Origin: Nemertoderma westbladi
Lineage: Eukaryota; Animalia; Xenacoelomorpha
Direction of reading: 5' to 3'
Assembly: GCA_032718475.1 (NCBI GenBank)
Contig: JAUCBJ010006774.1
Location: 62,001-126,000, forward strand
Length of the DNA: 64,000 nt
The position numbers and the translations under genes were made by a program. The notes under the pieces are model-generated. The model was not told the DNA's origin. It ran no database searches and worked only from the letters and a program-made list of their open reading frames with translations. Below are positions 2,943 through 35,700 of the stretch, piece after piece (position 1 is the stretch's first letter; each line of letters starts with the position of its first letter).

Positions 2943-3474
2943 AATGTCACAATTTTGTCCTTTTTTTAACGGCCTTGCGAGATGTCATGAAGTTCTCGAG
3001 ACGGAGATATTGTATCATTGTCTCATTTAGAAAAACCGACTCTAAAGGAATTTCGCCCTAAATTGTTTCACTTTTAGTATTTGTAGTGAAATAAATTTTC
3101 ATTGGCGGCCGCTAGGAGGCGTGAGACTCCCAACAGTACTTTATAAGGCCCTGTGCATTTTCACGTTTCCTTGTACATTGATTATAGTTTATTGTTATAG
3201 TTAAAATATATATATTTAATACAAAGTTAAATATATTATATTTAGGTAAAAATAACTATATAAATAATACACCATGTCCCGTAATATAGTGTCATTTTCT
3301 GATGACACGGACCCCCCCCCCCCCCCCCAAATTTTTCTACAAATCTTTATCATATTGCTTGAAATTTGAAACACAACTAGTTCAACTCACCGTGGTTGTT
3401 ACCATGAAGCCGGAATTTTCGATTTCGCGATCTATAAGCGTTTTAAAAATGTGTCTTTTGTAGTAATTTATCAG

Positions 3475-4300: not shown

Positions 4301-5013
4301 TTTAAACGCATGTAGCTAAAGATTGAAAGCAAATATAAAAATTCTGGCTCACCCAGTCAGTGGTCGGGAGGTGAAACTATCTCTGTTTCAAATTTCATGC
4401 AATCTGAATTGCGATGAAAATAATTAATTAATAATTGCGATAGTGTCACTGAATTCAATTTCAATTTCAAAGCTCGGTTTACGCCCCGGCAGGCTATATT
4501 GATAAAATTATAGGGTGATAACTGTTAAAACAAAATTTAAAACGCACGGTATATAGGTTAAGTAAAATACACAATTACAGTAAAATGGTGAGGTCTAAAA
4601 AACACACCGTAAATATATAACTGATAATGTCAGATTTAGATTATGTTGGATGAAATGACATTAATGAATATATATAATATGCTGAAGAGACAGTATTTAC
4701 AATCAATTATTTTAAATGATAGAAAGGAAGGGTGAAATTATAAAATTATATTATAATAATGATTATGATATTTATATAAGTATGTTGATTTATCGGCGGC
4801 TATTATTGGTAAAATGGTCTAACAACATCAAAGTAATTAAAATAACATACAAAATAAGAGCAACAACATACAATGACAATACAATACGGCTGGTTTTGGC
4901 ATGTAAGGGCCGAAAAACTAATAGTATCATATCAGTTAAAAATAACACGTATCATTAGGAGTATTATTGATTAAGTATTATTTATTATACTTATACTTTT
5001 ATAGGTATTATTA

Positions 5014-8000
5014 TTATTGATAAAGATTATAAAAGTCCAATACCACTAAATGGCGAGCTGCATGTGAGCCAGTGGTGCAACTCAGTATGGTACCAATAAA
5101 AAAGAGTTTATACTGACTAGCAGGACTCAGTTCGGTGGCTTGAGATTTTCCATGTCGATTCCGTATGGCCTTGAAACTGTATCTAGAGACACTCAGAGAA
5201 GACAAACTTGGTAAACCGAGGTGCCATGCGGAGACACCATAACGGAAAAAAATCTGAGCACTAGACAGACCTGCAAGGTGCAGACAGATTAAATGATGAA
5301 AGAAGAAAATAACCTTTCTATTAGGACAATTTAAGATGCTGTAGGTAAATGACGCAGTTTTGAAGTATAGGAAATCTTCCAGGTTGATCATACCAAAGAG
5401 TTTACATAGAATTCCATTAGAAACATAGTTTCCTATTGCACATATAGTTCTCATTGCTTGATGAAGTTGTAGCGATATCTCTGCAATATTAGGCTTATCA
5501 AGTTCCGAGCATCCATACAGTATTGACGGGAGGCACATCACCTTCCATATTTTAACAACAACTGCCAGTGGAACACTGTTAATGCAAAGACCACGTGCCT
5601 CCATTCTGCTGACACAAGTCCAAATTTTACATTTTACAAACTGAGTCAAAGATTGCGACGTCATGGGAAAGGGCAACCCTAGATAGTTGCAATCCTTCGC
5701 AGAAACCAAAATAATGCTGTCTGTCCCATTTATGAATTCCAATGATTCCTCTCCATTGCTCGTTCTAGCACCATTCAGGTATATGAAATGAGTCTTTTTT
5801 ATGTTTAGAAGCAACTTATGTCTTTCAAAGTAATTGCAGCATAGGGCCATAAGTTTCTCTGCATCAGACTTCATGTTTGCTGCAAGAATGATATCATCAC
5901 CATAGCTCATTCCACCGAAAGATTCTGCCTTTATGTGCACACCAAGACCACTGTTATCAATCTCCTTAAAAAGACTAGACATATAGAAATTAAAAAGAAT
6001 TGGGGATAACATCCCGCCTTGTCTTACACCTCTCTCTAAGGGGAATGCTTGACATATCCGTGTTCTAGATGCCAAGAAAGCTGAAGCTGAGCAGTAATAG
6101 TTTCTTAGTGTTTCCAATAGGTTGTGTTCAGTTTTAGCATCCTCTAATTTCCTAATTAACATTGTGTAGTCGACGGTATCAAAAGCAGATGACAAGTCTA
6201 ATGATACTATATACATTGATGAACCCTTTTTTGTGAATTCATTTACTAAGTTGTTGACCAGTGCATACGTCATTTCTGTATTTGTTTTTTGTTTATAACC
6301 CATCTGCAAGTCATGAGAGTCCAATGGCAATTCAGGGAGTATAAGCATTTCCCAAAGTTTGGCGATAACAGCTACAATTGCAATTCCACGATAGCTCTTA
6401 GTTGAAAATTTATCCAGATTCCTGCCCTTATATAATGGCATTAACAGAGACATGCTCAACTTCTTAGGACATGAACAGGAGGCTCTCATAGAATTGAATA
6501 TGTATGCTAAGGCGCTGCAGAGCCCATCAGAGATTCCAAAAAATAAATGTTCTGACTTTAACCCGAAGCAATCAGCAGCTTTTTTCCTGTTTAAATTGCG
6601 GATACCACTTGCAATGCATTCTGTGGACAGGATTGATGTGTCGTTTAATGTTTTCGCTTCATGAGATGCTATATTTTCCAACGACTTACCATTTAAGGTG
6701 CTATCCTTGTATGTATCCTCATAGTGCTGCTTCAGCTTACTGAACATTTCGTCTGTCATTTCCTCCTGGGGAGCACGGTTCTTGGTAAGCTTCCAGAACT
6801 TTACATCATCATCTCTGCAGGACTCTACCAACTCAGTAATATGATTGGAGTACTCAATTCTACTTAGCTTCATAGCAACTTGATTGTATCTTCTTGTGGC
6901 AGCCCAATATCCTATGTAGGAGACATTAGATGGATCCTTTATACTGCCTTGATTGATCCAGATCTCCTTTGCCCTGTCAACGATACATTTTAGTTTACCA
7001 AGACTGGCGTTGTCAGCATAAGATTTCCATCTAGAGTTTACAGATCTTGGTTTCCTATTATCAATAAAGCTGGTTGGAATGTAAACATCGGATGTTTTCC
7101 TCAGGACAGCAATGACTTTATCCATTACAATCTCTGCATCGTGTGGATTTGTAGAATAATTGTTATAGGGCTTGATAAAGGATGATAGCTTCTCTGATAC
7201 AACCTTGCGATACTGTTCAAGCTGTTTAGTGGTTGCTTTACTGAAATATACAATTTTTCTCTTGTATGTGCGATGAGATGATGCAGTCCAATTATCGTTC
7301 TGTCGTTTGGCTGAAAGACTCAGTGTTGTTCTAACTGGAGTGTGGTCTGAGAGATTACTTGGATCCAACCCAAAGACCATGCTAGATGTTATATTTGGAG
7401 CAATATCTGGTGACAAAAGAATGTGGTCAATGTAAGAAGATCTTTGCACAATACCATTTGATCTAAAGAAAAATGTTGAAAGCAGTTCATTTGGAGCAAA
7501 ACAAAAATTGCTAACCACCAAACCATGGGGTTGTGCTACATTTTGAACAAAGATGTCACCAAAACGGGAGGTTGCAGTGTTGACGTTTCCACTGTCACTA
7601 CTCAAACGACCAAGGCTACCATTGATGTCTCCTAAAACAACTACTGGAATGTTTTGAGTTCTATCATCGATCAATGTTGCCAGTCTCGCACACTGTTGAA
7701 TGTAAGAATCCTTATCAGATGGAAGGTTGCAGTCAGCTGGCATGTAGACAGCCATAAGCGCGATATCCATAATAGTTGGGTGATTCTTTAGTTCCACAGC
7801 AATGATGCGGTCTGAGTTGGTTGTGACTGGGGTGGAGTACTGCATCAAATCATCCCGCATTAACAACATGATGCCACCCTGAGGCCGGCCACTATAAAAA
7901 GGGTCTTTCATTGCATCAGCAATTGTTGTGAGAATTTTATAACCACTAAAGGGTTTGTCCTGATTCAAATAAACCTCTGTTTCAAGAGGACCTAGCCAGG

Positions 8001-8259
8001 TCTCTTGAAGAGCAAGTATGTCAGGCTTATGTCTATCAATTAAGGTTTCGATGTACAGTCTATTACGCACAAAACCCTTGCAATTTAATGTAAAAATGAC
8101 TATGTCTTCAGACTTTTTGCACTTTGCTGTTCCATCTTTGGAAAAGCTTGATTGTGTTTTGGTAGTCCTATTAATATCTTGTATAGTGTTTGCCTTGTGG
8201 AGTGTTTGTTGCAGGAACAGTGACTTTCTAAAAACGATTTGTATTGTAGCATGGAGTTT
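5014..8259 (-). CDS. LINE ORF2: AP-endonuclease + reverse transcriptase; the frame is open from 8259, upstream of the track's GTG start at 8070
   Basis: APE motifs IVIFTLNCKGF (upstream of 8070), LQETW, VLGDIN, SYIDHIL, SDHTPV. RT motifs YRGIAI, LDLSSAFDTV, GVRQGGMLSPILFNFY, SYGDD, YLG. Confidence 0.95.
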   Translation of the reverse strand, partial: KLHATIQIVFRKSLFLQQTLHKANTIQDINRTTKTQSSFSKDGTAKCKKSEDIVIFTLNCKGFVRNRLYIETLIDRHKPDILALQETWLGPLETEVYLNQDKPFSGYKILTTIADAMKDPFYSGRPQGGIMLLMRDDLMQYSTPVTTNSDRIIAVELKNHPTIMDIALMAVYMPADCNLPSDKDSYIQQCARLATLIDDRTQNIPVVVLGDINGSLGRLSSDSGNVNTATSRFGDIFVQNVAQPHGLVVSNFCFAPNELLSTFFFRSNGIVQRSSYIDHILLSPDIAPNITSSMVFGLDPSNLSDHTPVRTTLSLSAKRQNDNWTASSHRTYKRKIVYFSKATTKQLEQYRKVVSEKLSSFIKPYNNYSTNPHDAEIVMDKVIAVLRKTSDVYIPTSFIDNRKPRSVNSRWKSYADNASLGKLKCIVDRAKEIWINQGSIKDPSNVSYIGYWAATRRYNQVAMKLSRIEYSNHITELVESCRDDDVKFWKLTKNRAPQEEMTDEMFSKLKQHYEDTYKDSTLNGKSLENIASHEAKTLNDTSILSTECIASGIRNLNRKKAADCFGLKSEHLFFGISDGLCSALAYIFNSMRASCSCPKKLSMSLLMPLYKGRNLDKFSTKSYRGIAIVAVIAKLWEMLILPELPLDSHDLQMGYKQKTNTEMTYALVNNLVNEFTKKGSSMYIVSLDLSSAFDTVDYTMLIRKLEDAKTEHNLLETLRNYYCSASAFLASRTRICQAFPLERGVRQGGMLSPILFNFYMSSLFKEIDNSGLGVHIKAESFGGMSYGDDIILAANMKSDAEKLMALCCNYFERHKLLLNIKKTHFIYLNGARTSNGEESLEFINGTDSIILVSAKDCNYLGLPFPMTSQSLTQFVKCKIWTCVSRMEARGLCINSVPLAVVVKIWKVMCLPSILYGCSELDKPNIAEISLQLHQAMRTICAIGNYVSNGILCKLFGMINLEDFLYFKTASFTYSILNCPNRKVIFFFHHLICLHLAGLSSAQIFFRYGVSAWHLGLPSLSSLSVSRYSFKAIRNRHGKSQATELSPASQYKLFFIGTILSCTTGSHAARHLVVLDFYNLYQ

Positions 8260-11200
8260 CTAGAAGTACTCGTCGTTGTACAGATGAAACTTCTTTGAGG
8301 GGTGACTTGAATCCATTATTGTTATAGTTCTTTGGTAATGAATCTTTTAGTAGATGCTGATTTAAATGTATCTGGCTATTGCATGATGTAATTGCTGGAG
8401 TGCCCCTCGATTGATGCCACTGTTGATCAGGACTTAGATACTGCCCTGTGTTGTTCTTGAATTGATGATGACCCTTGAAATGTTCTTGTTGGATAACGTT
8501 TTGATTATTGGTTAGATTGGTCCTATTATTGATGTTGTGTTGGATGTTGTCCAGTGATTGTGGATGATGGCCTTGTTGCCATTGAGAAGAGTGAGAGTAA
8601 TGTTGAAAGTTGTTCAAAGGCATTCCCCTATGCACTTGATGGCTGACATAATTGTTAATGGTAGGTGGGCCATGCCAGTTGTTTTTTCTTTCCCTGTCAG
8701 GGTCATGTGCAAACCCATATCTCGTTTCATGAAGAACCTGTGGTGGAAATGATTTAGTGGAAAGTTTATAGTCCTTTTGATTCGTGTGCTTATTCGTGGA
8801 ATATCTAGGCCCCTCCCCCTTGCGATCTCCTTGTTTATACTCCCATACTTTGGTATTATTCCCTGGCCAGATTGATGCATCCAAGAAAATATTAAGATGT
8901 TCTTCTAGGATTGTTACTTTGGCACTTTTTGGTGATCCCCTGTTTCCAATTATCCACACATGGATAGGTTCAATCCCAGTTTGCCTATAACAGAAATCAA
9001 TGAGCTGGTTGCGGCTGCAGCTTCTTTCCAGACCGGATATATATATATACCGCAAGTTAATGCTAGATTTTTGAGAATGATCTTTGATTATAAGCCTTTT
9101 CGAGTCTGAATTATTGAACTCGAGAAGTTCTTTCAACATATTGTTCTGGTCTCTTAGTAGACTGGATACCTTTAACTCAATATCAAGGTCAGAGAACCTG
9201 TTTTCAGTTTTGATTTCATCAATTTTACTTGCAAAAGTACAGGTTTTGGACGATGCTGTTTTATGTGGTCTAAACCATGTATTCTCAGAGTCCAGTACAG
9301 TCGCCATAGAAGCCGGATAAGGTACTGATACTTGATGACTGAGATTGATTGGGACATTTTCATTGCATTTGCTGTCGTTCCCACCAGTTTCACTCTCTTT
9401 AAGCTCCTTTGTATCTATGGTGAGAATATCCGAGTCACTAGGAACATCTGTGGTGTGTCCAAGTCCAAGCTTCGCTAAACTTAGTTGCTTACGCTTTTTC
9501 TTACTTCTATACTTTGACAATTTAGGAGATTGATTTTTCTTTAAGATAGGTTGTGACTGCTGCCGTTCATCAATGGTGGCCTGGTCGGTTGTATTTTCCA
9601 CTCCCACTGTTGTTTCAGTATTTCTCCTCTTTACCACTTCCTCCAGATGCTTTAATTTAGTAGCAGTGAGGTCAGAGGTATGTTGAAGCAATTTGAGTTC
9701 TATTTGCATATTGACTACCTTTTCTATCAAATCAAGAATTCCGACAGTTTCCATATTTGAGATATTTACCCGCTTTCTTGTACTGGGTGTTATTGATTTT
9801 GATTCTGCCGCCAGTGAGAACTCCACAACATCCATGGCCAACTCATCAATTGAGCGTCTATGGATAGCAGAAACCTTTGCACCAATTTCAGACCCAAGGA
9901 ATTTTTTTATGCTGCATAAAAGCATTGATTGAAAATATTGCAACATATCAATTCCTAGTGATGATAGTGCTTTTGCGTAGTCACTCTTTGGATTTTGCAT
10001 AATTCTCAATCGCCTAGCTGTGGAAATGAAGTCTTCAGTGCTCCTAACATCGTGAAACTCTGCCGACAGGCTGCTGTCAAGAGGAGATTCTGGCCACTCA
10101 GTAGATAACAATGGCGCTGAGCCAATTGTAGTGCTATCCCCTGCATCAGTATAAGCTTGTACTTTGCTCTTGCTATACATAGATTTTGCGATTGAGTCTA
10201 GAGAATTACTTCGTACACGTTTTTTGGAAAGTCCCTGTTGACACATTAGACCTTTATTGACAGAGATCGGATTTAATTCACTGCCAGTTATTTTGCACAT
10301 TTCAAGACATTCTCTTAACCATTGTCGCAGTTGGGGGCTGTGATTATGGATAGGTAGAATATTGTTTAATCCCTCAGATAGTGCATGGGCATATAAACAA
10401 ATAAAAGGCCCACAATCATGAGCATTAACCTGTTTTGCAAAACTTGAGTTTGTATTGACTGTTGCTGTCCATCTCCTCTTGGATGCCTTTCTCCATTTGT
10501 TGTGTTCATCAATTTGTGACAATAGATTTGCTATTGCGAAAGTTACCTTAGTGGGCATGACTGTCTGTTTTGCCAAAGGATCTAAGATGTAAATAGTTTT
10601 GGAAGTGACATCTGCCACATGCATAATGTAATGGTTAGATCTACACTCTGGGAAGAAAATTATCTGAGGAGGAGTAGACAAGTGGCGCGATATGTACCTT
10701 CTTGCAACATATTTTACTGCACTGACTGGATCGTGATTAGGTGTTCCAAGTTTGTATGTTAGTTGACAAGGGATAGCTGTTGTTTGGTGAAAATTTCGTT
10801 CTAAAAGTCCTAGAAATCCATCCACTATGCTATCACTTACCCAGGTGTTATGATTCAATGTATTAAGTTCCTGCAGTGTTGGAATAACAATTCCTGGGCA
10901 GTCTTTGTTAAGTGCATCCAAATATGATTTAATTTCTAATGTGATGTCTCTGGTTTCTACAGCCTGGCTACTGTCTGGATAAACTTCAATTACTGAATCC
11001 CAGCTGTTTCCCAGTTTAGTGTCTTTTACTTTGGCTACTGACTCAACTGATTGTATGGACTCACGGACTATATCCACCTTATTATGACTGGCTAACTTAA
11101 GGCCTGAAGCATTGTCCATTTCACTGCTAATCCCTTTGTCATTCCTTTCTGTTTGTCTTACCTTTGCGATATACTTGCATTCTGTTTTTAGAGCCAATTT

Positions 11201-12139
11201 CACTGATGTCAGTGGATAATGATGATCACTTCTGTGTGATTTATGGAAGTAATCAGTTATTTTACTACCATGTGGGTGTAGAGATTTTGGGAGTGCTGAG
11301 GGAGATAGAAGTGTAGGTTGAGAGACTGGTGTTGATGGAGATGTGGAAGCTTGATCAGACATTAGCGTTGATGGAGATGACACCATTTGTTGGGGGAAAA
11401 GTGTCTGTTGAGGCAGTAGTGTTGGCTGATAAAAGGGTTGTGATTTTTGCTGAGGTGTTGGTTGAGATAGGGAAATTGGTTGAGGGGGAGGTGTTTGATG
11501 GGAAGGGAGAATTTGTTGATATGGAGGAGTTGGTTGAGAAATGGATAAGGGATGAGAGGGGTGTGAAAGGAGTGGATGTTGATCAAGGGATAATGAAAGT
11601 TGAGGTGGGACTGTTTGTTGCTGTGAAAGTGTTGATTGAGTAAGTACTACTTGATGGGGAAGGTGTGTTGATGGAGATGGTGGTATTGTTTGAGAAGGGC
11701 GTGTTGGTTGAGAATGTGAAGTTGGTTGAGGGGAGTGTAATGGTTCAGGTGAGGGTGTTTGTTGAGGGTGTTTGATGAGGATCTGTGTTGTTTGGGAAGG
11801 GGATGGGGAAGTCATGTGTTCATTTTCCTTGTAAGAGGCCTCTGTAGTAGAGTCTAAAAGGATTAGTTCAATGTCATGTTCATCTGTCTCTAATCTCGGA
11901 GTTATTATGGAGTTTACTTGTTGGTCTAAGACCTGGTTCAGATTTTCAGATGAATCCAGAGCCGGACTTGGTGTTTTGGTGTTCTTGCATCGCTTCAGGA
12001 ATCTCTCAGCTCTAAGCAGTAAGGCCGCCCGTGTTCCAGAGGATGAAAGGTCATGGTTGGAGAGAAAACACTTCAGTCGTGCAGTGTTCATTTTCCGAAT
12101 GTCTGGGGTCTTCTCCAGACATTCAGACAGTGAATCCAT
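8228..12139 (-). CDS. LINE ORF1, 1303 aa: SAP domain, P/Q/S-rich linker, Ulp1/SENP-like C48 protease, coiled-coil, RRM-like domain, N/Q/H-rich tail
   Basis: SAP-like IRKMNTARLKCFLSNHDLSSSGTRAALLLRA. Ulp1-like LNTLNHNTWVSDSIVDGF...IFFPECRSNHY...IYILDPL...QVNAHDCGPFI. RRM-like YIYISGL...SAKVTI...IWPGN. Confidence 0.9.
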   Translation of the reverse strand: MDSLSECLEKTPDIRKMNTARLKCFLSNHDLSSSGTRAALLLRAERFLKRCKNTKTPSPALDSSENLNQVLDQQVNSIITPRLETDEHDIELILLDSTTEASYKENEHMTSPSPSQTTQILIKHPQQTPSPEPLHSPQPTSHSQPTRPSQTIPPSPSTHLPHQVVLTQSTLSQQQTVPPQLSLSLDQHPLLSHPSHPLSISQPTPPYQQILPSHQTPPPQPISLSQPTPQQKSQPFYQPTLLPQQTLFPQQMVSSPSTLMSDQASTSPSTPVSQPTLLSPSALPKSLHPHGSKITDYFHKSHRSDHHYPLTSVKLALKTECKYIAKVRQTERNDKGISSEMDNASGLKLASHNKVDIVRESIQSVESVAKVKDTKLGNSWDSVIEVYPDSSQAVETRDITLEIKSYLDALNKDCPGIVIPTLQELNTLNHNTWVSDSIVDGFLGLLERNFHQTTAIPCQLTYKLGTPNHDPVSAVKYVARRYISRHLSTPPQIIFFPECRSNHYIMHVADVTSKTIYILDPLAKQTVMPTKVTFAIANLLSQIDEHNKWRKASKRRWTATVNTNSSFAKQVNAHDCGPFICLYAHALSEGLNNILPIHNHSPQLRQWLRECLEMCKITGSELNPISVNKGLMCQQGLSKKRVRSNSLDSIAKSMYSKSKVQAYTDAGDSTTIGSAPLLSTEWPESPLDSSLSAEFHDVRSTEDFISTARRLRIMQNPKSDYAKALSSLGIDMLQYFQSMLLCSIKKFLGSEIGAKVSAIHRRSIDELAMDVVEFSLAAESKSITPSTRKRVNISNMETVGILDLIEKVVNMQIELKLLQHTSDLTATKLKHLEEVVKRRNTETTVGVENTTDQATIDERQQSQPILKKNQSPKLSKYRSKKKRKQLSLAKLGLGHTTDVPSDSDILTIDTKELKESETGGNDSKCNENVPINLSHQVSVPYPASMATVLDSENTWFRPHKTASSKTCTFASKIDEIKTENRFSDLDIELKVSSLLRDQNNMLKELLEFNNSDSKRLIIKDHSQKSSINLRYIYISGLERSCSRNQLIDFCYRQTGIEPIHVWIIGNRGSPKSAKVTILEEHLNIFLDASIWPGNNTKVWEYKQGDRKGEGPRYSTNKHTNQKDYKLSTKSFPPQVLHETRYGFAHDPDRERKNNWHGPPTINNYVSHQVHRGMPLNNFQHYSHSSQWQQGHHPQSLDNIQHNINNRTNLTNNQNVIQQEHFKGHHQFKNNTGQYLSPDQQWHQSRGTPAITSCNSQIHLNQHLLKDSLPKNYNNNGFKSPLKEVSSVQRRVLLETPCYNTNRF

Positions 12140-12389
12140 ATTTTAATGAGATTTAGGGTAAGCCAACAATCATTAGTTATTTGTGATAGCAGATTGAAAT
12201 TATTGACAAATATAGACAATAATTTGGATGGTTTGATTTATTACAGTCATATGAATTATCAATTAAGAATAAGAATGAGAATGAATGATAGGAGAACAGT
12301 TACTAATATGATATATAGAGAACGGACTTGCAATTCGGTAGGATTGTGATATGAATGAGCAGTTAATGAGTTTAGTGTAAACAGACCGG

Positions 12390-12700
12390 CGTTCAAATAC
12401 TAACCACGTTGCTATAGAAACGCGTCCTCCTTTGCAACTGGAGGTCACTATTGAGTGGAGTACGACGGAAGGCCGTCGTATTCGGTAGGGTTGTGTATTG
12501 TGATCCTGTAGATGAGGTGGCGTGGGGTCCAGGGCGACTAAGCTTGGGCTCGCTCGAGTTGGCGGGTGGAAGCCCGGAAGGGACTCTATGGGAGAACGCT
12601 CGGTTGGCTCGTATACCGATAGGGAGGTCGGTATTCCCACGTCGCGGTTGCAATAAATCCCGGAAATTAGATGAAGGACCATCCGGTTCGGGTTACGAAA
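12390..12700 (-). promoter_or_regulatory. GC/CpG-rich 5' UTR of the LINE, candidate internal Pol II promoter
   Basis: Abrupt GC/CpG enrichment just upstream of ORF1 in AT-rich surroundings. Promoter function is inferred from general LINE biology. Confidence 0.4.
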
Positions 12701-13249
12701 ATCTAAATTTATTTTATGTGGGCCAATACTCATGCAGGCAGTCTGGCAGTCAGTATAAGCAGTCAATGTAGGACTGTAGGCTGCAGTGCTGTAAGGTTTA
12801 CAATAGCCAGCTCATGCAGTTACAATCAGTCGAATTACGACACTATATTCTGGGACATGGTGTAATATTTGATAAAAAAAATTGAAAGTGTAATATTTTT
12901 TGTTCATGACCTGCCCTGTACATGTAAATGGTGTCTACCCCCACTAAACCGATGATTGCGGTTCTAATGATCCTAACAAGACCTTCATACGACAATAAAA
13001 AATGGCAAAACAAAATAACCGCCCTTTCGCGAAAGAACCGGCCCCTTCGGTAGACTGAGCAAACATAAACATGAGTTGGGGGACCTCTAAACTATCTTCA
13101 AAAGGAGGAGCAACACATTATTGGGTGAGAGTGAAGAAATTCAAAATATTTGTTTTTTTGGGACAGTCTAATGAGTATACCAGAATACCATAAACAATAT
13201 ACAATGATACATAACAATGAACAATGTACAGTGGGTGGTATTAATGAAT

Positions 13250-14797: not shown

Positions 14798-16393
14798 ATG
14801 GAGTTCTTAAGATCGTTTTACTTATTATTTATCTTGGTGGTCTATGTTTCTATGGAGGGACATTGTCACTCCCATAGTCATTCACATGGTGGACACGCCC
14901 ATTCACATGGTGGTCATGCCCATTCACATGGTGGTCATGCCCATTCACATGGCGACTCTAGTCAGGATAGTCACCTGGATCACCACCATGAAGAACCGGT
15001 TAATCTCCGAGCCGCGGCTAAGAAGTATTCCAGGGAGTTGAACGTCCCCTTGGAACCAACAGCGGATCCATTAGTAATGGAACAAGAGCCTGTGGTTGAA
15101 TCTGAGGAGGATGGGGATAAGTCAGGGGGGGATAAACGACATATAGAAACAAATAAACCTGAGTATGGCGGGAATGATCACGGACACCAAGATGAGCCAC
15201 ATGGTCACTCACATGATCCACATGGCCACTCACATGAGGCACATGGTCACTCACATGAGGCACATGGTCACTCACATGAGGCACATGGTCACTCACATGA
15301 GCCACATGGCCACTCACATGAGGCACATGGTCACTCACATGAGGCACATGGTCACTCACACGATAGCCACCCAGACATACACACTTACCACGGTGACAGC
15401 CACACCCACCATAAAATTCCCCGTGACCTCTCCGATATATGGGTCCACGCGATGCTGTCAACCTTAGCGATCAGCATCGCTCCTTTCATTATTCTCTTCC
15501 TGATTCCGATCGACGCGAACACTGAGGAAAGTCTTCCCTTCCTAAAGGTTCTCCTTAGTTTCGCGTCGGGGGGGTTACTGGGTGACGCGTTTCTCCACCT
15601 AATCCCCCATGCTCTGATGGAGAACGGGGGCCATTCTCATTCACACGGCCCATCCCACCAACCCCACGGGGAGGCGGAGCCGCACCAACCCCACGACCTA
15701 TCTGTGGGTCTCTGGGTTCTAGCCGGGATTGTGTCCTTTCTTATCATCGAGAAGTTTGTTCGGTACGCCAAGGGAGGCCATGGCCATTCCCACGCAAAAC
15801 CCACGGAAAACCATGGGAAATCTACAGAGAACCACGGTAAATCTACAGAGAACCACGGTAAAGCGACAAGGAGCCCCGGTAAACAGACGGACACGAAACT
15901 AAACGGAACCCCGACCAAGCAGCCAGTGGCCCCGGCCCACGAGGTTAAGGTGGCGGGTTTCCTCAACCTGGTTGCCGACTTCGCCCATAACTTCACGGAC
16001 GGACTCGCTGTGGGTGCTAGTTACCTCGCCGGGGACGCCGTCGGTATGGTCACCACGGTAACCATCCTCTTCCACGAGGTCCCCCACGAGATCGGGGACT
16101 TCGCCATCCTCGTGCAATCCGGATTCACTAAGCGGCGCGCCATGGCCATGCAGTTAGTGACCGCTGTGGGCGCGCTGGCCGGCACCGCTACGGGACTCCT
16201 GGCCGAATCCTTCCAGACGACCTCGGCCTCCCATTGGGTGCTCCCCTTCACCGCGGGTGGCTTCATCTACATAGCGACGGTCTCAGTGATACCCGAACTG
16301 CTTGACGACGGTAAACCTTGGCAGAGTTTCAAAGAGATATTGGCGATGGGAGTCGGGGTGGCCATGATGGTGGTTATCGCGTTCTACGAATGA
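14798..16393 (+). CDS. SLC39A7: ZIP7/Catsup (LIV-1 subfamily) ER zinc transporter, single-exon CDS
   Basis: Signal peptide; His-rich N-terminus; [75 protein letters not shown]; AATAAA at ~16490. Confidence 0.95.
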
Positions 16394-23325: not shown

Positions 23326-23911
23326 AATCAAACTTATTTTATTATATTAATAATGTAATAATCAATACACCCGAAATGAATACACCTTAACATGAATAAT
23401 ATTGATTAATTTACAAGAAAAATATACGGTAAGATAAACAGAGATGAGATTTAAATTTCCCACCCAACCGGTAACTATTAGCAGCCAATGAACAGTGAGC
23501 TACAAGTTGCAGCTAATTTCCATCCCCACTGTCCAATAATATCCCAGCTCAACCTGATGTTGATATAACAGAATGCAGGGCTTATTGGTGGAGGTTCTGG
23601 CTCTGGTGCACTAGAAAAACCAATATCCTGCTAGTATTATATTTACAATTTATCATTTAACAAAAACAGCACATTTATATGTATTACTCTATTTTATTGT
23701 TTAAAAATATAAAATGTTGTTTTATACCACTGGCTTACCATAATATTGTTGTGTCAATCTTATCTTCTAAACCATGCGAACGCAGTGTAATATGTACCGT
23801 TTTTCTGTTTTTTTGTACTGGTACTTTTATTACAGTTAATTACAAATCATTATCATATAGGCTATAATATAATTATCATATCATTAGGCAACACTGATAA
23901 ACTCAAATACA

Positions 23912-26900
23912 ATGGAATCCCTAGATAATGGTATTATAGTCTGCCCAATATGTTCCCAAACAATAGAAAACTCTTCAGACTGCGTTGAACACATCAATAT
24001 GCAACATAATGGATTCAACTACTTCAAGGATTTCTTGTACAAAACAGGAATACTGCGAGCCAAAGATGATGGAATTTGCGAATGCGAAATTTGTCACATT
24101 GAATTTAAAATAAAACAAATTGGCGGCCAACTTCTTAATGAAATACAACTTATTCGACATTTTTTTGTTCAACATTTCAAGACATATGAATTGAACTGTA
24201 CCACTGAAGTTGATTCCAGCGCAAATAAATTCCCTAAGAGAAACGGTCTGCTTCGATTGAAAGAAACAACCTGTGATAACGCCGACTATAACATAGCTTA
24301 TGAAGGGGAGAGGAGCCATCATCGTGGTCACTCAACAAACGTTATTAGTCGAGGAGGAAACAATATGTGTAATATAAGGAAGTTGGGGGTATCAATAATT
24401 AAAAAGCCCGCACCCATTCTCATTAGGCCAAAGAAATCAGGAACCATTGTGTCTATGACAGCGCCACTTAGCGGTAATGTTCCCGGGAGTCCACTATTAA
24501 ATTGTGAACCTAAAGCAGAAACATATAGTGGTAATATTCCTAAGGGATCTTTACCAATAGCTGCTAATGGCAAGTCTAGTTCCAGAAGCATCTCCCACGC
24601 TGTCGCAATTAAACCAGTAAATGTTACCTCAGGTGATCAACTTATTCATTATTCTTCCGTGAATCGATGTCACTCAACTGTCACTCAGCTATCTGTATCA
24701 AACCCTGGCACATGTACCATCACAACTGTAGTACCATATAACCAAATTATACCAATACCCACCCCATCAGTAGTACCAGTTATCCAAACTATACCAATCC
24801 CTTATACCACCCCATCTAGACCTTTAGTACCAGTTAACCCAACTATACCAATCCCTTATACCACCCCATCTAGACCTGTAGTACCAGTTAACCCAACTAT
24901 ACCAATCCCTAGCACAATAGCATCTGTAACGTCTATAAAGCGATCATCTCATCACCTCAAAGTCCCATCCACAACTTTACCGAATATAAAACCAAAGCCA
25001 ATCAGGAACGACGGGAGACGACTGGGTCCCGCTCCAGTAAAACTAACTGACTCAACCGTAGATCAATTGAATAATTATTCATTAATTCCAGTAACATCTA
25101 TGTCACCCGTAATATTATCGAGACAAACATTGAAGACAAAGTTATCTGCAACAGTAAGTTTCCCACCATCTATACTGGGGAGAATAAATAATTCGTTAAG
25201 TGTCCCACCATCTATACTGGGGACAATAAATAATTCGTTAAGTGTCCCACCATCTATACTGGGGACAATAAATAATTCGTTAAGTGTCCCACCATCTATA
25301 CTGGGGACAATAAATAATTCGTTAAGTGTCCCACCATGTATACCAGGGACAATTAATTCTTTAAGTGTCCCACCATGTATACCAGGGACAATTAATTCTT
25401 TAAGTGTCCCACCATGTATACCAGGGACAATTAATTATTTAAATGTCCCACCATGTATACCAGGGACAATTAATTCGTTAAGTGTCCCACCATGTATACC
25501 AGAGACAATTAATTCGTTAAGTGTCCCACCATGTATACCAGGGACAATTAATTCGTTAAGTGTCCCACCATGTATACCAGGGACAATTAATTCGTTAAGT
25601 GTCCCACCATGTATACCAGGGACAATTGATTCGTTAAGTGTACCATTATCTGTAGCGGGGACAAATAATTCATTATCTGTAGCAGTGAATGCCCCACCAT
25701 CTGTAATTGAGACAAATAATTCCTTATCTACCAAACCACATGTCCCCCCACTCCCCTCATTTAAGTTACTCGCCCCTAAATATGTTTCACAACCACTAGA
25801 AACTCACCCAGAGCGCTCACAGGAACTACTACAACCTCGTGAAACTCATCCCCCAGAGCGCTCACAGAAACTACTACAACCTCGTGAAACTCATCCCCCA
25901 GAGCGCTCACAGAAACTACTACAACCTCGTGAAACTCATCCCCCAGAGCGCTCACAGAAACTACTACAACCTCGTGAAACTCATCCCCCAGAGCGCTCAC
26001 AGAAACGACTACAACCTCGTGAAACCCATCCCCCAGAGCGCTCACAGAAACGACTACAACCTCCTGAAACCCATCGCCCAGAGCGCTCACAGAAACTACT
26101 ACAACCTCGTGAAACTCATGCCCCAGGTCGATCACATAAACCAGAGAAATGTCTGAATATAAGTAATATTAAGTCTGCAACAAACTACTCTTCTACCAAG
26201 TTAGAAATAAAAACATCGACTTTGAAACCAAAGGCTAAAATTGATAAGTTAAAACGATTACAGCCGATATTGACTTTGGATAAAAGATTTTATATCAATG
26301 TAACTGGAGCGGATGAGAAAAGAAAAAACAATAAAGTAAAGAAAAAAATATTATTGAGGGAAATACGAAAAAAACAAAAACCTAATATATCAACTCCAAT
26401 GGTTAGTTCGCCGAGCGTCTCTACACCAGCAAATAGAAATGGATTACGTTCTGGTAATGAAACTTTTACCACCAAATGTGTACCCTTGGTCAGCCAACGG
26501 GTGGTCGGGATATCCCCGAGTTCTACCTTTTATAAACCAACGCAGTATCCCACAGTATATACTGCAAACGGAGTTAGGAAACCTCGATCTGGTATCGGTG
26601 TATCTAAGATTGGGATATCACGTAGAAATCAGTTTCATACGCGCAAAGAATCCCGGTACAGACGATTAGCTACAATCCTACGCTGTGGCCAACGCCTCAC
26701 TAAATCATATCGGATGATATCAAACATCGACTCCTGCGGTACAATACAGCCCCCATTCAGTCCCGCTATCCCAGACACCGCAGTCTCTACTAGAGCTAGA
26801 AATACACCGGAAATGGTCACCAGTGAACACTCTTATGCGAAGCAGCCCAAGTTAGCTATCGACAGACACTCGACACTGTTATCGCTCGATAGAAACGCGA

Positions 26901-27043
26901 CAATGGTTTCGGGTGAGAGACAACCGACACTGATTTCGGTAGACCGACACCATTCAGACGCTGGTATTCCCGAAGATAGTTATCTCATACAGTCACCCAG
27001 ACGGAGGAAACAACAGTTAACTTCTAGACTAGGACTGGGGTAA
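23912..27043 (+). CDS. Putative nuclear protein with two C2H2-like zinc fingers, in-frame tandem repeats and an HCF-1-binding-like EHSY motif
   Basis: 1043-aa uninterrupted ORF. CPIC-x8-C-x2-HINMQH and CEIC...HFFVQH near the N-terminus; basic KRKNNKVKKK segment; SEHSYAK near the C-terminus. May be one exon of a larger gene. Confidence 0.7.
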   Translation: MESLDNGIIVCPICSQTIENSSDCVEHINMQHNGFNYFKDFLYKTGILRAKDDGICECEICHIEFKIKQIGGQLLNEIQLIRHFFVQHFKTYELNCTTEVDSSANKFPKRNGLLRLKETTCDNADYNIAYEGERSHHRGHSTNVISRGGNNMCNIRKLGVSIIKKPAPILIRPKKSGTIVSMTAPLSGNVPGSPLLNCEPKAETYSGNIPKGSLPIAANGKSSSRSISHAVAIKPVNVTSGDQLIHYSSVNRCHSTVTQLSVSNPGTCTITTVVPYNQIIPIPTPSVVPVIQTIPIPYTTPSRPLVPVNPTIPIPYTTPSRPVVPVNPTIPIPSTIASVTSIKRSSHHLKVPSTTLPNIKPKPIRNDGRRLGPAPVKLTDSTVDQLNNYSLIPVTSMSPVILSRQTLKTKLSATVSFPPSILGRINNSLSVPPSILGTINNSLSVPPSILGTINNSLSVPPSILGTINNSLSVPPCIPGTINSLSVPPCIPGTINSLSVPPCIPGTINYLNVPPCIPGTINSLSVPPCIPETINSLSVPPCIPGTINSLSVPPCIPGTINSLSVPPCIPGTIDSLSVPLSVAGTNNSLSVAVNAPPSVIETNNSLSTKPHVPPLPSFKLLAPKYVSQPLETHPERSQELLQPRETHPPERSQKLLQPRETHPPERSQKLLQPRETHPPERSQKLLQPRETHPPERSQKRLQPRETHPPERSQKRLQPPETHRPERSQKLLQPRETHAPGRSHKPEKCLNISNIKSATNYSSTKLEIKTSTLKPKAKIDKLKRLQPILTLDKRFYINVTGADEKRKNNKVKKKILLREIRKKQKPNISTPMVSSPSVSTPANRNGLRSGNETFTTKCVPLVSQRVVGISPSSTFYKPTQYPTVYTANGVRKPRSGIGVSKIGISRRNQFHTRKESRYRRLATILRCGQRLTKSYRMISNIDSCGTIQPPFSPAIPDTAVSTRARNTPEMVTSEHSYAKQPKLAIDRHSTLLSLDRNATMVSGERQPTLISVDRHHSDAGIPEDSYLIQSPRRRKQQLTSRLGLG

Positions 27044-29559: not shown

Positions 29560-29719
29560 TTAATGCTCCTACTACTGTACTACGGTAAAATGTGTGTTTT
29601 CAATACCCGGGAACCAGAGACCTATCGAGAGACCAAAAAATAGCCCGGAGAATCCAGAGATCAGAGAACAGAGACAGGTTTCTGTTACAACTCTAAGTTA
29701 CTATGGTTACTATGTGCTA

Positions 29720-32700
29720 CAACTCCAAAACCTGAAGAAGCCAATTCGTCAAAGAGGTCGGCGAAATAAATGTTGAAAAGATATGCTGAAAGGATGCCAC
29801 CATGTCTTATGCAGCACGTCAAGGAGGCTGAAAGGATGCCACCATGTCTTATGCAGCACGTCAAGGAGGCTGAAAGGATGCCACCATGTCTTATGCAGCA
29901 CGTCAAGGAGGCTGAAAGGATGCCACCATGTCTTATGCCGCACGTCAAGGAGGCTGAAAGGATGCCACCATGTCTTATGCAGCACGTCAAGGAGGCTGAA
30001 AGGATGCCACCATGTCTTATGCAGCACGTCAAGGAGGCTGAAAGGATGCCACCATGTCTTATGCCGCACGTCAAGGAGGCTGAAAGGATGCCACCATGTC
30101 TTATGCAGCACGTCAAGGAGGCTGAAAGGATGCCACCATGTCTTATGCAGCACGTCAAGGAGGCTGAAAGGATGCCACCATGTCTTATGCCGCACGTCAA
30201 GGAGGCTGAAAGGATGCCACCATGTCTTATGCAGCACGTCAAGGAGGCTGAAAGGATGCCACCATGTCTTATGCAGCACGTCAAGGAGGCTGAAAGGATG
30301 CCACCATGTCTTATGCAGCACGTCAAGGAGGCTGAAAGGATGCCACCATGTCTTATGCAGCACGTCAAGGAGGCTGAAAGGATGCCACCATGTCTTATGC
30401 AGCACGTCAAGGAGGCTGAAAGGATGCCACCATGTCTTATGCCGCACGTCAAGGAGGCTGAAAGGATGCCACCATGTCTTATGCAGCACGTCAAGGAGGC
30501 TGAAAGGATGCCACCATGTCTTATGCAGCACGTCAAGGAGGCTGAAAGGATGCCACCATGTCTTATGCAGCACGTCAAGGAGGCTGAAAGGATGCCACCA
30601 TGTCTTATGCAGCACGTCAAGGAGGCTGAAAGGATGCCACCATGTCTTATGCAGCACGTCAAGGAGGCTGAAAGGATGCCACCATGTCTTATGCAGCACG
30701 TCAAGGAGGCTGAAAGGATGCCACCATGTCTTATGCAGCACGTCAAGGAGGCTGAAAGGATGCCACCATGTCTTATGCAGCACGTCAAGGAGGCTGAAAG
30801 GATGCCACCATGTCTTATGCAGCACGTCAAGGAGGCTGAAAGGATGCCACCATGTCTTATGCAGCACGTCAAGGAGGCTGAAAGGATGCCACCATGTCTT
30901 ATGCCGCACGTCAAGGAGGCTGAAAGGATGCCACCATGTCTTATGCCGCACGTCAAGGAGGCTGAAAGGATGCCACCATGTCTTATGCAGCACGTCAAGG
31001 AGGCTGAAAGGATGCCACCATGTCTTATGCAGCACGTCAAGGAGGCTGAAAGGATGCCACCATGTCTTATGCCGCACGTCAAGGAGGCTGAAAGGATGCC
31101 ACCATGTCTTATGCAGCACGTCAAGGAGGCTGAAAGGATGCCACCATGTCTTATGCAGCACGTCAAGGAGGCTGAAAGGATGCCACCATGTCTTATGCAG
31201 CACGTCAAGGAGGCTGAAAGGATGCCACCATGTCTTATGCAGCACGTCAAGGAGGCTGAAAGGATGCCACCATGTCTTATGCAGCACGTCAAGGAGGCTG
31301 AAAGGATGCCACCATGTCTTATGCAGCACGTCAAGGAGGCTGAAAGGATGCCACCATGTCTTATGCAGCACGTCAAGGAGGCTGAAAGGATGCCACCATG
31401 TCTTATGCAGCACGTCAAGGAGGCTGAAAGGATGCCACCATGTCTTATGCAGCACGTCAAGGAGGCTGAAAGGATGCCACCATGTCTTATGCAGCACGTC
31501 AAGGAGGCTGAAAGGATGCCACCATGTCTTATGCAGCACGTCAAGGAGGCTGAAAGGATGCCACCATGTCTTATGCAGCACGTCAAGGAGGCTGAAAGGA
31601 TGCCACCATGTCTTATGCAGCACGTCAAGGAGGCTGAAAGGATGCCACCATGTCTTATGCAGCACGTCAAGGAGGCTGAAAGGATGCCACCATGTCTTAT
31701 GCAGCACGTCAAGGAGGCTGAAAGGATGCCACCATGTCTTATGCAGCACGTCAAGGAGGCTGAAAGGATGCCACCATGTCTTATGCAGCACGTCAAGGAG
31801 GCTGAAAGGATGCCACCATGTCTTATGCAGCACGTCAAGGAGGCTGAAAGGATGCCACCATGTCTTATGCAGCACGTCAAGGAGGCTGAAAGGATGCCAC
31901 CATGTCTTATGCCGCACGTCAAGGAGGCTGAAAGGATGCCACCATGTCTTATGCAGCACGTCAAGGAGGCTGAAAGGATGCCACCATGTCTTATGCAGCA
32001 CGTCAAGGAGGCTGAAAGGATGCCACCATGTCTTATGCAGCACGTCAAGGAGGCTGAAAGGATGCCACCATGTCTTATGCAGCACGTCAAGGAGGCTGAA
32101 AGGATGCCACCATGTCTTATGCCGCACGTCAAGGAGGCTGAAAGGATGCCACCATGTCTTATGCAGCACGTCAAGGAGGCTGAAAGGATGCCACCATGTC
32201 TTATGCAGCACGTCAAGGAGGCTGAAAGGATGCCACCATGTCTTATGCAGCACGTCAAGGAGGCTGAAAGGATGCCACCATGTCTTATGCAGCACGTCAA
32301 GGAGGCTGAAAGGATGCCACCATGTCTTATGCAGCACGTCAAGGAGGCTGAAAGGATGCCACCATGTCTTATGCAGCACGTCAAGGAGGCTGAAAGGATG
32401 CCACCATGTCTTATGCAGCACGTCAAGGAGGCTGAAAGGATGCCACCATGTCTTATGCAGCACGTCAAGGAGGCTGAAAGGATGCCACCATGTCTTATGC
32501 AGCACGTCAAGGAGGCTGAAAGGATGCCACCATGTCTTATGCAGCACGTCAAGGAGGCTGAAAGGATGCCACCATGTCTTATGCCGCACGTCAAGGAGGC
32601 TGAAAGGATGCCACCATGTCTTATGCAGCACGTCAAGGAGGCTGAAAGGATGCCACCATGTCTTATGCAGCACGTCAAGGAGGCTGAAAGGATGCCACCA

Positions 32701-35700
32701 TGTCTTATGCAGCACGTCAAGGAGGCTGAAAGGATGCCACCATGTCTTATGCAGCACGTCAAGGAGGCTGAAAGGATGCCACCATGTCTTATGCAGCACG
32801 TCAAGGAGGCTGAAAGGATGCCACCATGTCTTATGCAGCACGTCAAGGAGGCTGAAAGGATGCCACCATGTCTTATGCAGCACGTCAAGGAGGCTGAAAG
32901 GATGCCACCATGTCTTATGCAGCACGTCAAGGAGGCTGAAAGGATGCCACCATGTCTTATGCAGCACGTCAAGGAGGCTGAAAGGATGCCACCATGTCTT
33001 ATGCAGCACGTCAAGGAGGCTGAAAGGATGCCACCATGTCTTATGCAGCACGTCAAGGAGGCTGAAAGGATGCCACCATGTCTTATGCAGCACGTCAAGG
33101 AGGCTGAAAGGATGCCACCATGTCTTATGCAGCACGTCAAGGAGGCTGAAAGGATGCCACCATGTCTTATGCAGCACGTCAAGGAGGCTGAAAGGATGCC
33201 ACCATGTCTTATGCAGCACGTCAAGGAGGCTGAAAGGATGCCACCATGTCTTATGCAGCACGTCAAGGAGGCTGAAAGGATGCCACCATGTCTTATGCAG
33301 CACGTCAAGGAGGCTGAAAGGATGCCACCATGTCTTATGCAGCACGTCAAGGAGGCTGAAAGGATGCCACCATGTCTTATGCAGCACGTCAAGGAGGCTG
33401 AAAGGATGCCACCATGTCTTATGCAGCACGTCAAGGAGGCTGAAAGGATGCCACCATGTCTTATGCAGCACGTCAAGGAGGCTGAAAGGATGCCACCATG
33501 TCTTATGCAGCACGTCAAGGAGGCTGAAAGGATGCCACCATGTCTTATGCAGCACGTCAAGGAGGCTGAAAGGATGCCACCATGTCTTATGCAGCACGTC
33601 AAGGAGGCTGAAAGGATGCCACCATGTCTTATGCAGCACGTCAAGGAGGCTGAAAGGATGCCACCATGTCTTATGCAGCACGTCAAGGAGGCTGAAAGGA
33701 TGCCACCATGTCTTATGCAGCACGTCAAGGAGGCTGAAAGGATGCCACCATGTCTTATGCAGCACGTCAAGGAGGCTGAAAGGATGCCACCATGTCTTAT
33801 GCAGCACGTCAAGGAGGCTGAAAGGATGCCACCATGTCTTATGCAGCACGTCAAGGAGGCTGAAAGGATGCCACCATGTCTTATGCAGCACGTCAAGGAG
33901 GCTGAAAGGATGCCACCATGTCTTATGCAGCACGTCAAGGAGGCTGAAAGGATGCCACCATGTCTTATGCAGCACGTCAAGGAGGCTGAAAGGATGCCAC
34001 CATGTCTTATGCAGCACGTCAAGGAGGCTGAAAGGATGCCACCATGTCTTATGCAGCACGTCAAGGAGGCTGAAAGGATGCCACCATGTCTTATGCAGCA
34101 CGTCAAGGAGGCTGAAAGGATGCCACCATGTCTTATGCAGCACGTCAAGGAGGCTGAAAGGATGCCACCATGTCTTATGCAGCACGTCAAGGAGGCTGAA
34201 AGGATGCCACCATGTCTTATGCAGCACGTCAAGGAGGCTGAAAGGATGCCACCATGTCTTATGCAGCACGTCAAGGAGGCTGAAAGGATGCCACCATGTC
34301 TTATGCAGCACGTCAAGGAGGCTGAAAGGATGCCACCATGTCTTATGCAGCACGTCAAGGAGGCTGAAAGGATGCCACCATGTCTTATGCAGCACGTCAA
34401 GGAGGCTGAAAGGATGCCACCATGTCTTATGCAGCACGTCAAGGAGGCTGAAAGGATGCCACCATGTCTTATGCAGCACGTCAAGGAGGCTGAAAGGATG
34501 CCACCATGTCTTATGCAGCACGTCAAGGAGGCTGAAAGGATGCCACCATGTCTTATGCAGCACGTCAAGGAGGCTGAAAGGATGCCACCATGTCTTATGC
34601 AGCACGTCAAGGAGGCTGAAAGGATGCCACCATGTCTTATGCAGCACGTCAAGGAGGCTGAAAGGATGCCACCATGTCTTATGCAGCACGTCAAGGAGGC
34701 TGAAAGGATGCCACCATGTCTTATGCAGCACGTCAAGGAGGCTGAAAGGATGCCACCATGTCTTATGCAGCACGTCAAGGAGGCTGAAAGGATGCCACCA
34801 TGTCTTATGCAGCACGTCAAGGAGGCTGAAAGGATGCCACCATGTCTTATGCAGCACGTCAAGGAGGCTGAAAGGATGCCACCATGTCTTATGCAGCACG
34901 TCAAGGAGGCTGAAAGGATGCCACCATGTCTTATGCAGCACGTCAAGGAGGCTGAAAGGATGCCACCATGTCTTATGCAGCACGTCAAGGAGGCTGAAAG
35001 GATGCCACCATGTCTTATGCAGCACGTCAAGGAGGCTGAAAGGATGCCACCATGTCTTATGCAGCACGTCAAGGAGGCTGAAAGGATGCCACCATGTCTT
35101 ATGCAGCACGTCAAGGAGGCTGAAAGGATGCCACCATGTCTTATGCAGCACGTCAAGGAGGCTGAAAGGATGCCACCATGTCTTATGCAGCACGTCAAGG
35201 AGGCTGAAAGGATGCCACCATGTCTTATGCAGCACGTCAAGGAGGCTGAAAGGATGCCACCATGTCTTATGCAGCACGTCAAGGAGGCTGAAAGGATGCC
35301 ACCATGTCTTATGCAGCACGTCAAGGAGGCTGAAAGGATGCCACCATGTCTTATGCAGCACGTCAAGGAGGCTGAAAGGATGCCACCATGTCTTATGCAG
35401 CACGTCAAGGAGGCTGAAAGGATGCCACCATGTCTTATGCAGCACGTCAAGGAGGCTGAAAGGATGCCACCATGTCTTATGCAGCACGTCAAGGAGGCTG
35501 AAAGGATGCCACCATGTCTTATGCAGCACGTCAAGGAGGCTGAAAGGATGCCACCATGTCTTATGCAGCACGTCAAGGAGGCTGAAAGGATGCCACCATG
35601 TCTTATGCAGCACGTCAAGGAGGCTGAAAGGATGCCACCATGTCTTATGCAGCACGTCAAGGAGGCTGAAAGGATGCCACCATGTCTTATGCAGCACGTC

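Follow-up and report, generated by a model that had tools for sequence, protein, structure and literature searches.

In a stretch of 64,000 nucleotides from the xenacoelomorph Nemertoderma westbladi (contig JAUCBJ010006774.1, positions 62,001 to 126,000; hereafter the window), we found a full-length long interspersed nuclear element (LINE) encoding an apurinic/apyrimidinic endonuclease (APE) and a reverse transcriptase (RT), whose first open reading frame (ORF1) carries a Ulp1/SENP-type (C48) protease domain behind a probable SAP motif. We tentatively favour the view that this is an active protease that takes a ubiquitin-like tag, SUMO most likely, off host proteins on chromatin. The domain at the centre of this report lies, in window coordinates, at:

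10280-10942, minus strand: C48 (Ulp1/SENP-fold) protease domain, amino acids (aa) 400-620; H503, D520, Q570, C576, W433 and D436 are kept, Y504 and Q459 are atypical.

The domain matches PF02902 with 34.3 bits in a scan of the whole ORF1 (E 2.8e-8) and with 38.4 bits when taken alone, for a cut-off of 20.7, and a phmmer search of the PDB places SENP1, SENP2 and Ulp1 on top (E 3e-7 to 1.4e-4). The stretches from the catalytic His to the Asp, and from the Gln to the Cys, align to SENP1 without gaps. An AlphaFold model of the domain (pLDDT 85.8), which leans towards the C48 fold because it was built from an alignment of C48 matches, has SENP2 as its best Foldseek match (E 6e-11), with SENP1 and Ulp1 also matched, and in VIA reaches a Z of 24.4 with SENP5 at a root-mean-square deviation of 2.0 Å over 186 residues. 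Among 42 protein relatives of the domain, the catalytic columns hold His in 42, Asp in 37 (Asn in 5), Gln in 41 and Cys in 42, and H503, D520, Q570 and C576 of ORF1 stand in register with them. Over aa 400-620, the contigs of three DNA sequencing runs do not differ from the window (one base is uncovered in one of them, X2), so that a Ulp1/SENP fold with its four catalytic residues recurs unchanged in independent DNA runs. A DNA transposon nested in ORF1 is ruled out, as the frame is open throughout and no long inverted repeat surrounds the domain.

A preliminary description of this DNA, made from the sequence alone, had placed a C48 domain in ORF1 with His503, Asp520, Gln570 and Cys576 and with HY in place of the usual HW; the domain, the four residues and the Tyr at 504 are all where it put them, and the fold prediction that it proposed as a check returned a Ulp1/SENP fold. 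It had also spoken of an intact SUMO protease, which fits the catalytic residues but not the substrate channel, where Y504 and Q459 depart from SUMO proteases.

The element that carries the protease has the boundaries, target-site duplication, tail and two frames of a complete LINE:

4456-12831, minus strand: full-length APE-RT LINE, 8,376 bp, with GAATT on both sides and bounded by reference to element-free contigs of the host repeat.
12832-12836, no strand: target-site duplication GAATT, 5' side, within a high-copy repeat.
4451-4455, no strand: target-site duplication GAATT, 3' side, matching the 5' side in sequence.
12140-12831, minus strand: 5' untranslated region (UTR), 692 nt, with five upstream ATGs.
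8228-12139, minus strand: ORF1, 1303 aa, a single open frame.
5014-8259, minus strand: ORF2, 1081 aa from stop to stop, with APE at aa 57-306 and RT at aa 617-863 (YGDD).
4456-5013, minus strand: 3' UTR, AT-rich, with a short (TTGAAA)n tail at its end, as read from the sequence.

In host-repeat contigs that lack the LINE, position 4405 is joined to 12832 with few repeat letters between them. The loose-end consensus before 12832 ends GTGTCACT, and the window before 4451 ends likewise. The high-copy repeat round the insertion site (4366-4450 plus 12832-12870) contains a G-run and an inverted pair GTGTC..GACAC, and a second, oppositely oriented copy of it is present at about 3250-3370. Pfam recognizes both APE (PF03372, E 2e-12) and RT (PF00078, E 6e-30) in ORF2, and the catalytic motifs GDIN, SDH and YGDD are present. 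The preliminary description was therefore correct in calling this an APE-type LINE on account of the APE and RT of the downstream ORF2. Searches for Rfam and tRNA matches gave none.

We followed the element in three DNA runs from two samples (X1, X2 and X3); a fourth run, X4, looks RNA-like. In X1, X2 and X3 the LINE is present as contigs near-identical to the window, with 6 differences and no gaps over 4,821 nt in X1. Single contigs join ORF2 to the protease, one in X1 (6859-11679) spanning the whole domain and one in X3 covering 6859-10675. With contiguous contigs in three runs, we can reject both a misassembly and an insertion confined to the window copy, and the protease belongs to the LINE family rather than to the window copy alone. 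Nine differences from the window are common to the three runs, two silent and seven non-silent, and this preponderance of non-silent changes fits drift of the window copy. Read depth, which does not equal copy number, rises in X1 from 55 in the 5' UTR to 134 in ORF1 and 250-347 at the 3' end, and likewise in X2 and X3, as expected from 5' truncation of copies. Over the protease it exceeds that of a neighbouring zinc-transporter gene about 4-fold in X1, 5-9-fold in X2 and 5-7-fold in X3. The LINE is probably a young family with several copies. ORF1 and ORF2 are uncovered in X4, which has no bearing on their expression.

Around the protease, ORF1 contains the following segments:

11993-12103, minus strand: SAP motif, borderline, aa 13-49 (PF02037).
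11240-11812, minus strand: Pro/Gln/Ser/Thr-rich linker, aa 110-300, 65% P/Q/S/T, from a decayed 18-nt repeat (family D1).
9605-10072, minus strand: helical region with a long helix at its end, aa 690-845; a coiled coil is possible (low-confidence model).
8825-9058, minus strand: candidate RRM-like segment, aa ~1028-1105.

A SAP-like motif at the N-terminus had been noted before. In a scan limited to the first 60 aa it matches PF02037 over the full 37 positions with 24.7 bits, above the cut-off of 23.9, but falls to 19 bits in the scan of whole ORF1, and the region has no match among PDB sequences; judged by its sequence, we consider the motif probable. The coiled coil and RRM-like core of the preliminary description fared worse. 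From aa 690 onwards there is no Pfam match, and PDB matches are weak, among them SART3, presumably an RRM protein, at E 0.25. In the single-sequence model of aa 688-1120 (pLDDT 38), aa 795-845 form a helix of about 50 residues and aa 1031-1064 follow a strand-helix-strand pattern; a fold search with this low-confidence model found no match. The heptad count is at chance level, being reached by 275 of 500 shuffles. In the Atlas, aa 690-1115 point to unnamed eukaryotic clusters of 364-419 aa (0.91-0.92), a lead only, with no named match. A coiled-coil/RRM core, as in ORF1 proteins of type II (coiled coil-RRM-CTD), is at most plausible.

How might such a protein act? SUMO is needed for transposon silencing of the piRNA/SETDB1 type. 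According to the reading that we favour, SAP would tether the ORF1 protein to chromatin, the C48 domain would strip the ubiquitin-like tag from host proteins there, and the loss of the tag would ease silencing of the LINE or help its integration. Whereas the fold and the catalytic residues are observed, we infer that the enzyme is active, what it cuts, that SAP binds DNA and that silencing or integration is affected. The comparison of structures is consistent with this: VIA Z-scores are 20.6-24.4 for SENP1/2/3/5 and Ulp1, 18.5-19.1 for NEDP1, 16-17 for SENP7/Ulp2 and 14 for pS273R of African swine fever virus (ASFV), such that the closest SUMO proteases stand 2-5 Z units above NEDP1. In structure as in sequence, SUMO proteases are nearer to the domain than either NEDP1 or the bacterial deubiquitinases, and W433, D436 and D440 are kept. 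Also in favour are the SAP score, which exceeds the Pfam cut-off in the scan of the N-terminus by itself, and the recurrence of Ulp1 domains in Ginger1 and Mutator transposases.

Several observations weigh against the reading of a chromatin-bound SUMO protease. ORF1 proteins of LINEs normally act on their own RNA, not on chromatin. The catalytic His is followed by Y504, at a site where the relatives have Trp in 40 of 42 cases and His and Phe in one each; a Trp in this place has a role in the substrate tunnel. In two alignments, Q459 is paired with the first of the two Phe in the SENP 'NTFF' motif, a column that we take to be that of Ulp1 Phe474; Phe occupies it in 20 of the 42 relatives and Gln in none. 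Ulp1 requires Phe474, whereas XopD and the NEDD8 protease SENP8 have Gln there (PMC4822132). The same paper considers the preference of such proteases for a ubiquitin-like protein hard to predict from sequence. As Y504 and Q459 depart from the SUMO proteases, specificity for SUMO is putative. SUMO-binding-like motifs in ORF1 number four and are not enriched, since at least four occur in 75 of 1000 shuffles.

The relatives of the element add to these objections. Contigs of a sister subfamily, 1.5-2.6 kb long, were found in the same runs; they are about 84-87% identical to the N-terminal part of ORF1, some of SAP included, with indels that roughly keep the frame, and a surplus of depth close to the RRM-like part would fit another sister match of about 70 nt. 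Among the contigs of the runs, no sister piece matches the protease at 80% or more. Its protease is therefore either more diverged than the low-complexity linker or absent. Contigs of all four runs branch at 12148, and the 5' UTR is apparently common to the sister subfamily up to about that position. A contig of 1,018 nt in X4 matches the 5' UTR over 12148-12793 with 6 differences and continues with 314 nt unlike the ORF1 of the window. One 5' UTR may thus drive several ORF1 variants.

Further afield, no relative combining SAP, C48 and a LINE came out of the word, phmmer, viral and metagenome searches, which leaves the favoured reading without comparative support. Word searches confirmed 0 of 358 candidates for the protease region and 0 of 4265 for aa 690-1115 at E <=10. 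A phmmer search with aa 1-840 against 1.84 billion proteins gave the 42 relatives, all matched on the protease alone at 23-35% identity, and Pfam finds neither SAP nor RT in any of them. Pattern matches to ORF2 were confirmed in 0 of 2 viral and 0 of 29 metagenome contigs. Alignment of the protease in metagenomes yielded 11 loci from 196 matches, and none of these loci, each 1.1-5.8 kb long, contains APE or RT; their retrieval is biased, as the loci are short and the patterns derive partly from two aligned matches. At five of the 11 (L002 and L008-L011) a transposase-like ORF is followed by the C48 protease and then by another C-terminal domain. We assume a transposase there from DDE-type motifs, and the two such ORFs that were scanned match no Pfam family.

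Trees place the protease with little precision. FastTree and IQ-TREE differ in where they put it. In a second tree, from which 17 of 43 rows had been dropped (near-duplicates, partial rows and long branches), it is the longest of 26 branches, with 3.21 changes per column, and joins the metagenome transposase-like family weakly (support 72). Despite this length, H, D, Q, C, W433 and D436 have all been kept, which speaks for activity having been under selection at some time. ORF2 is 20-26% identical to five database matches (20% for the best of them), and an RT tree of 8 rows, which contains no labelled clade references, groups three LINEs of the window (100/99) apart from these five; candidate clades are those of the RTE group, such as RTEX or Proto2, and of the Jockey group. 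A database relative of ORF2, P0049, shows a weak OTU match in front of APE and RT, at 21.2 bits and so below the cut-off of 23.3.

Of the rival explanations, the best supported, possible but rather unlikely in our view, is that the protease mainly cuts its own protein. Two features bear on it:

8228-8259, minus strand: ORF1/ORF2 overlap, 32 nt; ORF1 ends TTT TAG and the +1 frame reads TTT AGA, a candidate +1 shifty stop.
9380-9391, minus strand: ETGG, the sole Gly-Gly of ORF1, aa 917-920, a candidate self-cleavage site.

A cut after ETGG (aa 920) would free a core of 383 aa comprising the second heptad stretch, the RRM-like part and the tail, and, together with a +1 slip, would give an ORF1-core-APE-RT product, in the way that viral CE-clan proteases mature precursors. 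ORF2 lies in the +1 frame relative to ORF1, and a +1 slip at the stop re-pairs TTT on TTT; stop-like triplets preceded by TTT are 12 of 428 in the element. Contigs of the three DNA runs cross the junction without gaps and with the same frame layout, which rules out a sequencing error. The first Met of ORF2 is residue 117, inside the APE domain and beyond APE motifs at aa 57 and 84, so that an AUG start cannot give the whole endonuclease. ETGG resembles the C-terminal end of SUMO. In block shuffles of ORF1, [QE][TI]GG, a pattern modelled on SUMO ends and picked after ETGG had been seen, occurs in 1.9% and [TI]GG in 14%, but any GG in 75%. The freed piece would be of the size of the Atlas clusters. 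Viral Ulp-like proteases cut precursors and ubiquitin-like conjugates alike (PMC4822132), and +1 frameshifting or re-initiation was proposed for ORF2s of Paramecium LINEs (PMC5405496).

Weighing on the other side are the lack of a stimulatory hairpin 3' of the ORF1 stop (z 0.44) and a fold that is nearer to the SENPs (Z 24) than to ASFV pS273R (Z 14). Moreover, near-cognate starts (two CTG and several ATN) precede APE, and AUG-independent initiation is favoured for L1 ORF2 (PMC5009743); with a non-AUG start available to ORF2, a fusion protein is not required. Polyprotein processing, which the preliminary description had suggested, is thus encouraged by an AUG-less +1 ORF2 behind TTT-TAG and a single ETGG, which together make it a real rival. 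It and deSUMOylation on chromatin are not mutually exclusive.

It is also conceivable, though we think it unlikely, that the element has no need of its block of SAP, linker and protease: one young subfamily would carry it along as a passenger, or as a module weakened to tag binding, after capture from a DNA transposon resident in the same genome. ORF1s are known to shuffle domains freely (PMC4120745). The protease relatives of the metagenomes, standing behind transposase-like ORFs at five of 11 loci and beside RT at none, the weak joining of the protease to that family in the tree, and the sister subfamily without an 80% match over the protease would all agree with capture, and the W-to-Y and F-to-Q changes could be decay. 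Yet 660 nt are still open with all catalytic residues, which selection explains more easily, and no close donor is found among the 42 protease matches, which reach at most 35% identity. The GC content at third codon positions is 0.31 in the protease and similar, at 0.35-0.45, elsewhere in the element with the linker left aside, against 0.58 in the zinc-transporter gene.

Less probable still is a deubiquitinase or deneddylase that guards the element's own ribonucleoprotein from degradation, with SAP on nucleic acid inside the particle and not on chromatin. The Gln in the Phe474 column, as in SENP8/Den1 and XopD (PMC4822132), speaks for it, and so do the Josephin or OTU domains on the ORF2 protein of APE-carrying LINEs (PMC13405545), the proposal that the Josephin domain of Dualen disrupts protein degradation (bioRxiv 2021.04.23.441226), and P0049 with its sub-threshold OTU before APE and RT. 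The structural and sequence proximity to SUMO proteases over NEDP1 and bacterial deubiquitinases points the other way. SAP, too, is mostly a DNA or chromatin module. It is called 'putative DNA-binding' in bioRxiv 2021.04.23.441226. Least likely of all, we judge, is that the element makes an anti-silencing enzyme of its own: a self-cut at ETGG, acting as a SUMO mimic, would free a SAP-tethered deSUMOylase to take SUMO off silencing complexes on chromatin, and the core, prolonged into ORF2 through a +1 frameshift, would build the retrotransposition particle. If true, this would be the first LINE ORF1 with a catalytic counter-defence.

The window contains further repeats and genes. Two more LINEs, the other two of the three grouped in the RT tree, lie on the plus strand. 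One is an open APE-RT frame of 1091 aa at 55631-58906, 24% identical to ORF2 and with in-frame Mets before APE; no ORF1 is present in the 2.8 kb upstream, so that it is either a single-ORF element or a 5'-truncated copy. The other, at 38836-40131, is a 5'-truncated RT from a third LINE that is also related and shares 35% identity with the LINE at 55.6 kb. At 29685-38508, a 42-nt unit is repeated 208 times with 99% identity; read on the minus strand, it gives a motif of LINE RTs (..RHGGILSA..), and at 29.7 kb the array runs into RT-like sequence matching ORF2 (E 3e-5). This satellite has apparently grown out of an RT coding stretch. Another array, 11.4 kb long (41255-52679), has a 36-nt unit in 315 copies with 92% matches. 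The zinc-transporter gene used for comparison (14798-16393, plus strand) is a single-frame ZIP gene (PF02535, E 6e-75) with His-rich tandem repeats of 21 nt, the number of which differs in X4 (gaps of 12 and 21 nt). Finally, a frame of 1051 aa at 23888-27043 (plus strand) has a zinc-finger-like N-terminus and tandem arrays of 54-, 39- and 45-nt units, and no Pfam family above the cut-off.

Ulp1-type proteases occur in many unrelated transposons, and in the papers compared here their role is only speculated on. What seems new in the present LINE is the place, without an example in the papers searched, of a protease that transposons have captured repeatedly; proteases in transposons are already well known. 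The literature searched describes no APE-type LINE with a Ulp1 domain in its ORF1, and the preliminary description, which had called the architecture unusual, holds to that extent; Repbase, Dfam, subscription reviews and some supplements may contain one. A survey of 448 Jockey-group elements makes no mention of a protease, SAP, Ulp1 or SUMO in its main text and three supplements (PMC4120745), nor does a second ORF1 survey mention a protease or SAP in its text and one of two supplements (PMC5203782), and the word 'protease' is absent from the main text of PMC10294476 and PMC5753468. The ORF1 types I-V of the Jockey group resemble the ORF1 described here in being modular, with an accessory chromatin-related domain (PHD, esterase) before the RNA-binding core (PMC4120745), a core that is probable in our LINE.

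Among retrotransposons, Ulp1 domains are known from NeSL/Utopia elements, including Utopia-1_TSP (PMC4640811). These have a single ORF and a restriction-like endonuclease, whereas the LINE of the window has APE and two frames, with the protease in ORF1 behind SAP; membership in NeSL/Utopia is ruled out by APE before RT and by the two frames. Dualen/RandI with Josephin, and LINEs with an N-terminal OTU on the ORF2 protein, likewise combine a ubiquitin-type protease with an APE-carrying non-LTR element, but their proteases belong to other families (Josephin or OTU), sit on the ORF2 protein and come without SAP (PMC13405545; bioRxiv 2021.04.23.441226), in contrast to C48 in ORF1.

DNA transposons offer parallels in domain content. 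Zisupton is characterized by a transposase with a SWIM finger and by the absence of RT, and a SUMO protease was reportedly described in it by Bohne et al. in 2012. With that protease, and with SAP, which is also found in one Penelope-like family (bioRxiv 2021.04.23.441226), Zisupton would, like our LINE with its probable SAP motif, unite SAP with a protease of the SUMO type in a single protein; it is a DNA transposon, however, and the present element a retrotransposon with target duplication and tail. Membership in Zisupton is ruled out, as the element encodes APE and RT and Pfam finds in ORF1 SAP and C48 only, with no transposase or SWIM finger. Ulp1 domains are also present in Polintons (PMC10175614) and in the transposases of Ginger1 and Mutator, for which a role in transposition was proposed (PMC2836005). 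There, as here, a captured C48 domain is fused to a transposon protein and its role is conjectural; the partner is a DDE transposase in Ginger1 and Mutator and ORF1 in the LINE.

Why transposons carry enzymes of this type can be tested directly on the present LINE, which is full-length, still open and apparently very young, and in which the protease and the RT stand in separate ORFs. Action of the enzyme on SUMO at chromatin would tie the diversity of LINE ORF1s to escape from silencing by the host, and a cut at the protein's own ETGG would mean that a LINE processes a polyprotein. With the cellular proteases SENP1/2/3/5 and Ulp1 the domain shares the fold (Z 21-24), the His-Asp-Cys triad, the oxyanion Gln and the first Trp and Asp of W-x-x-D, and it differs from them in its low identity (14-22% in structural alignment), in the Tyr after the His and in the Gln at the Phe474-type position. 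With W-to-Y and F-to-Q changes that arose naturally in a SENP-type channel, it can help in learning what sets specificity among ubiquitin-like proteins.

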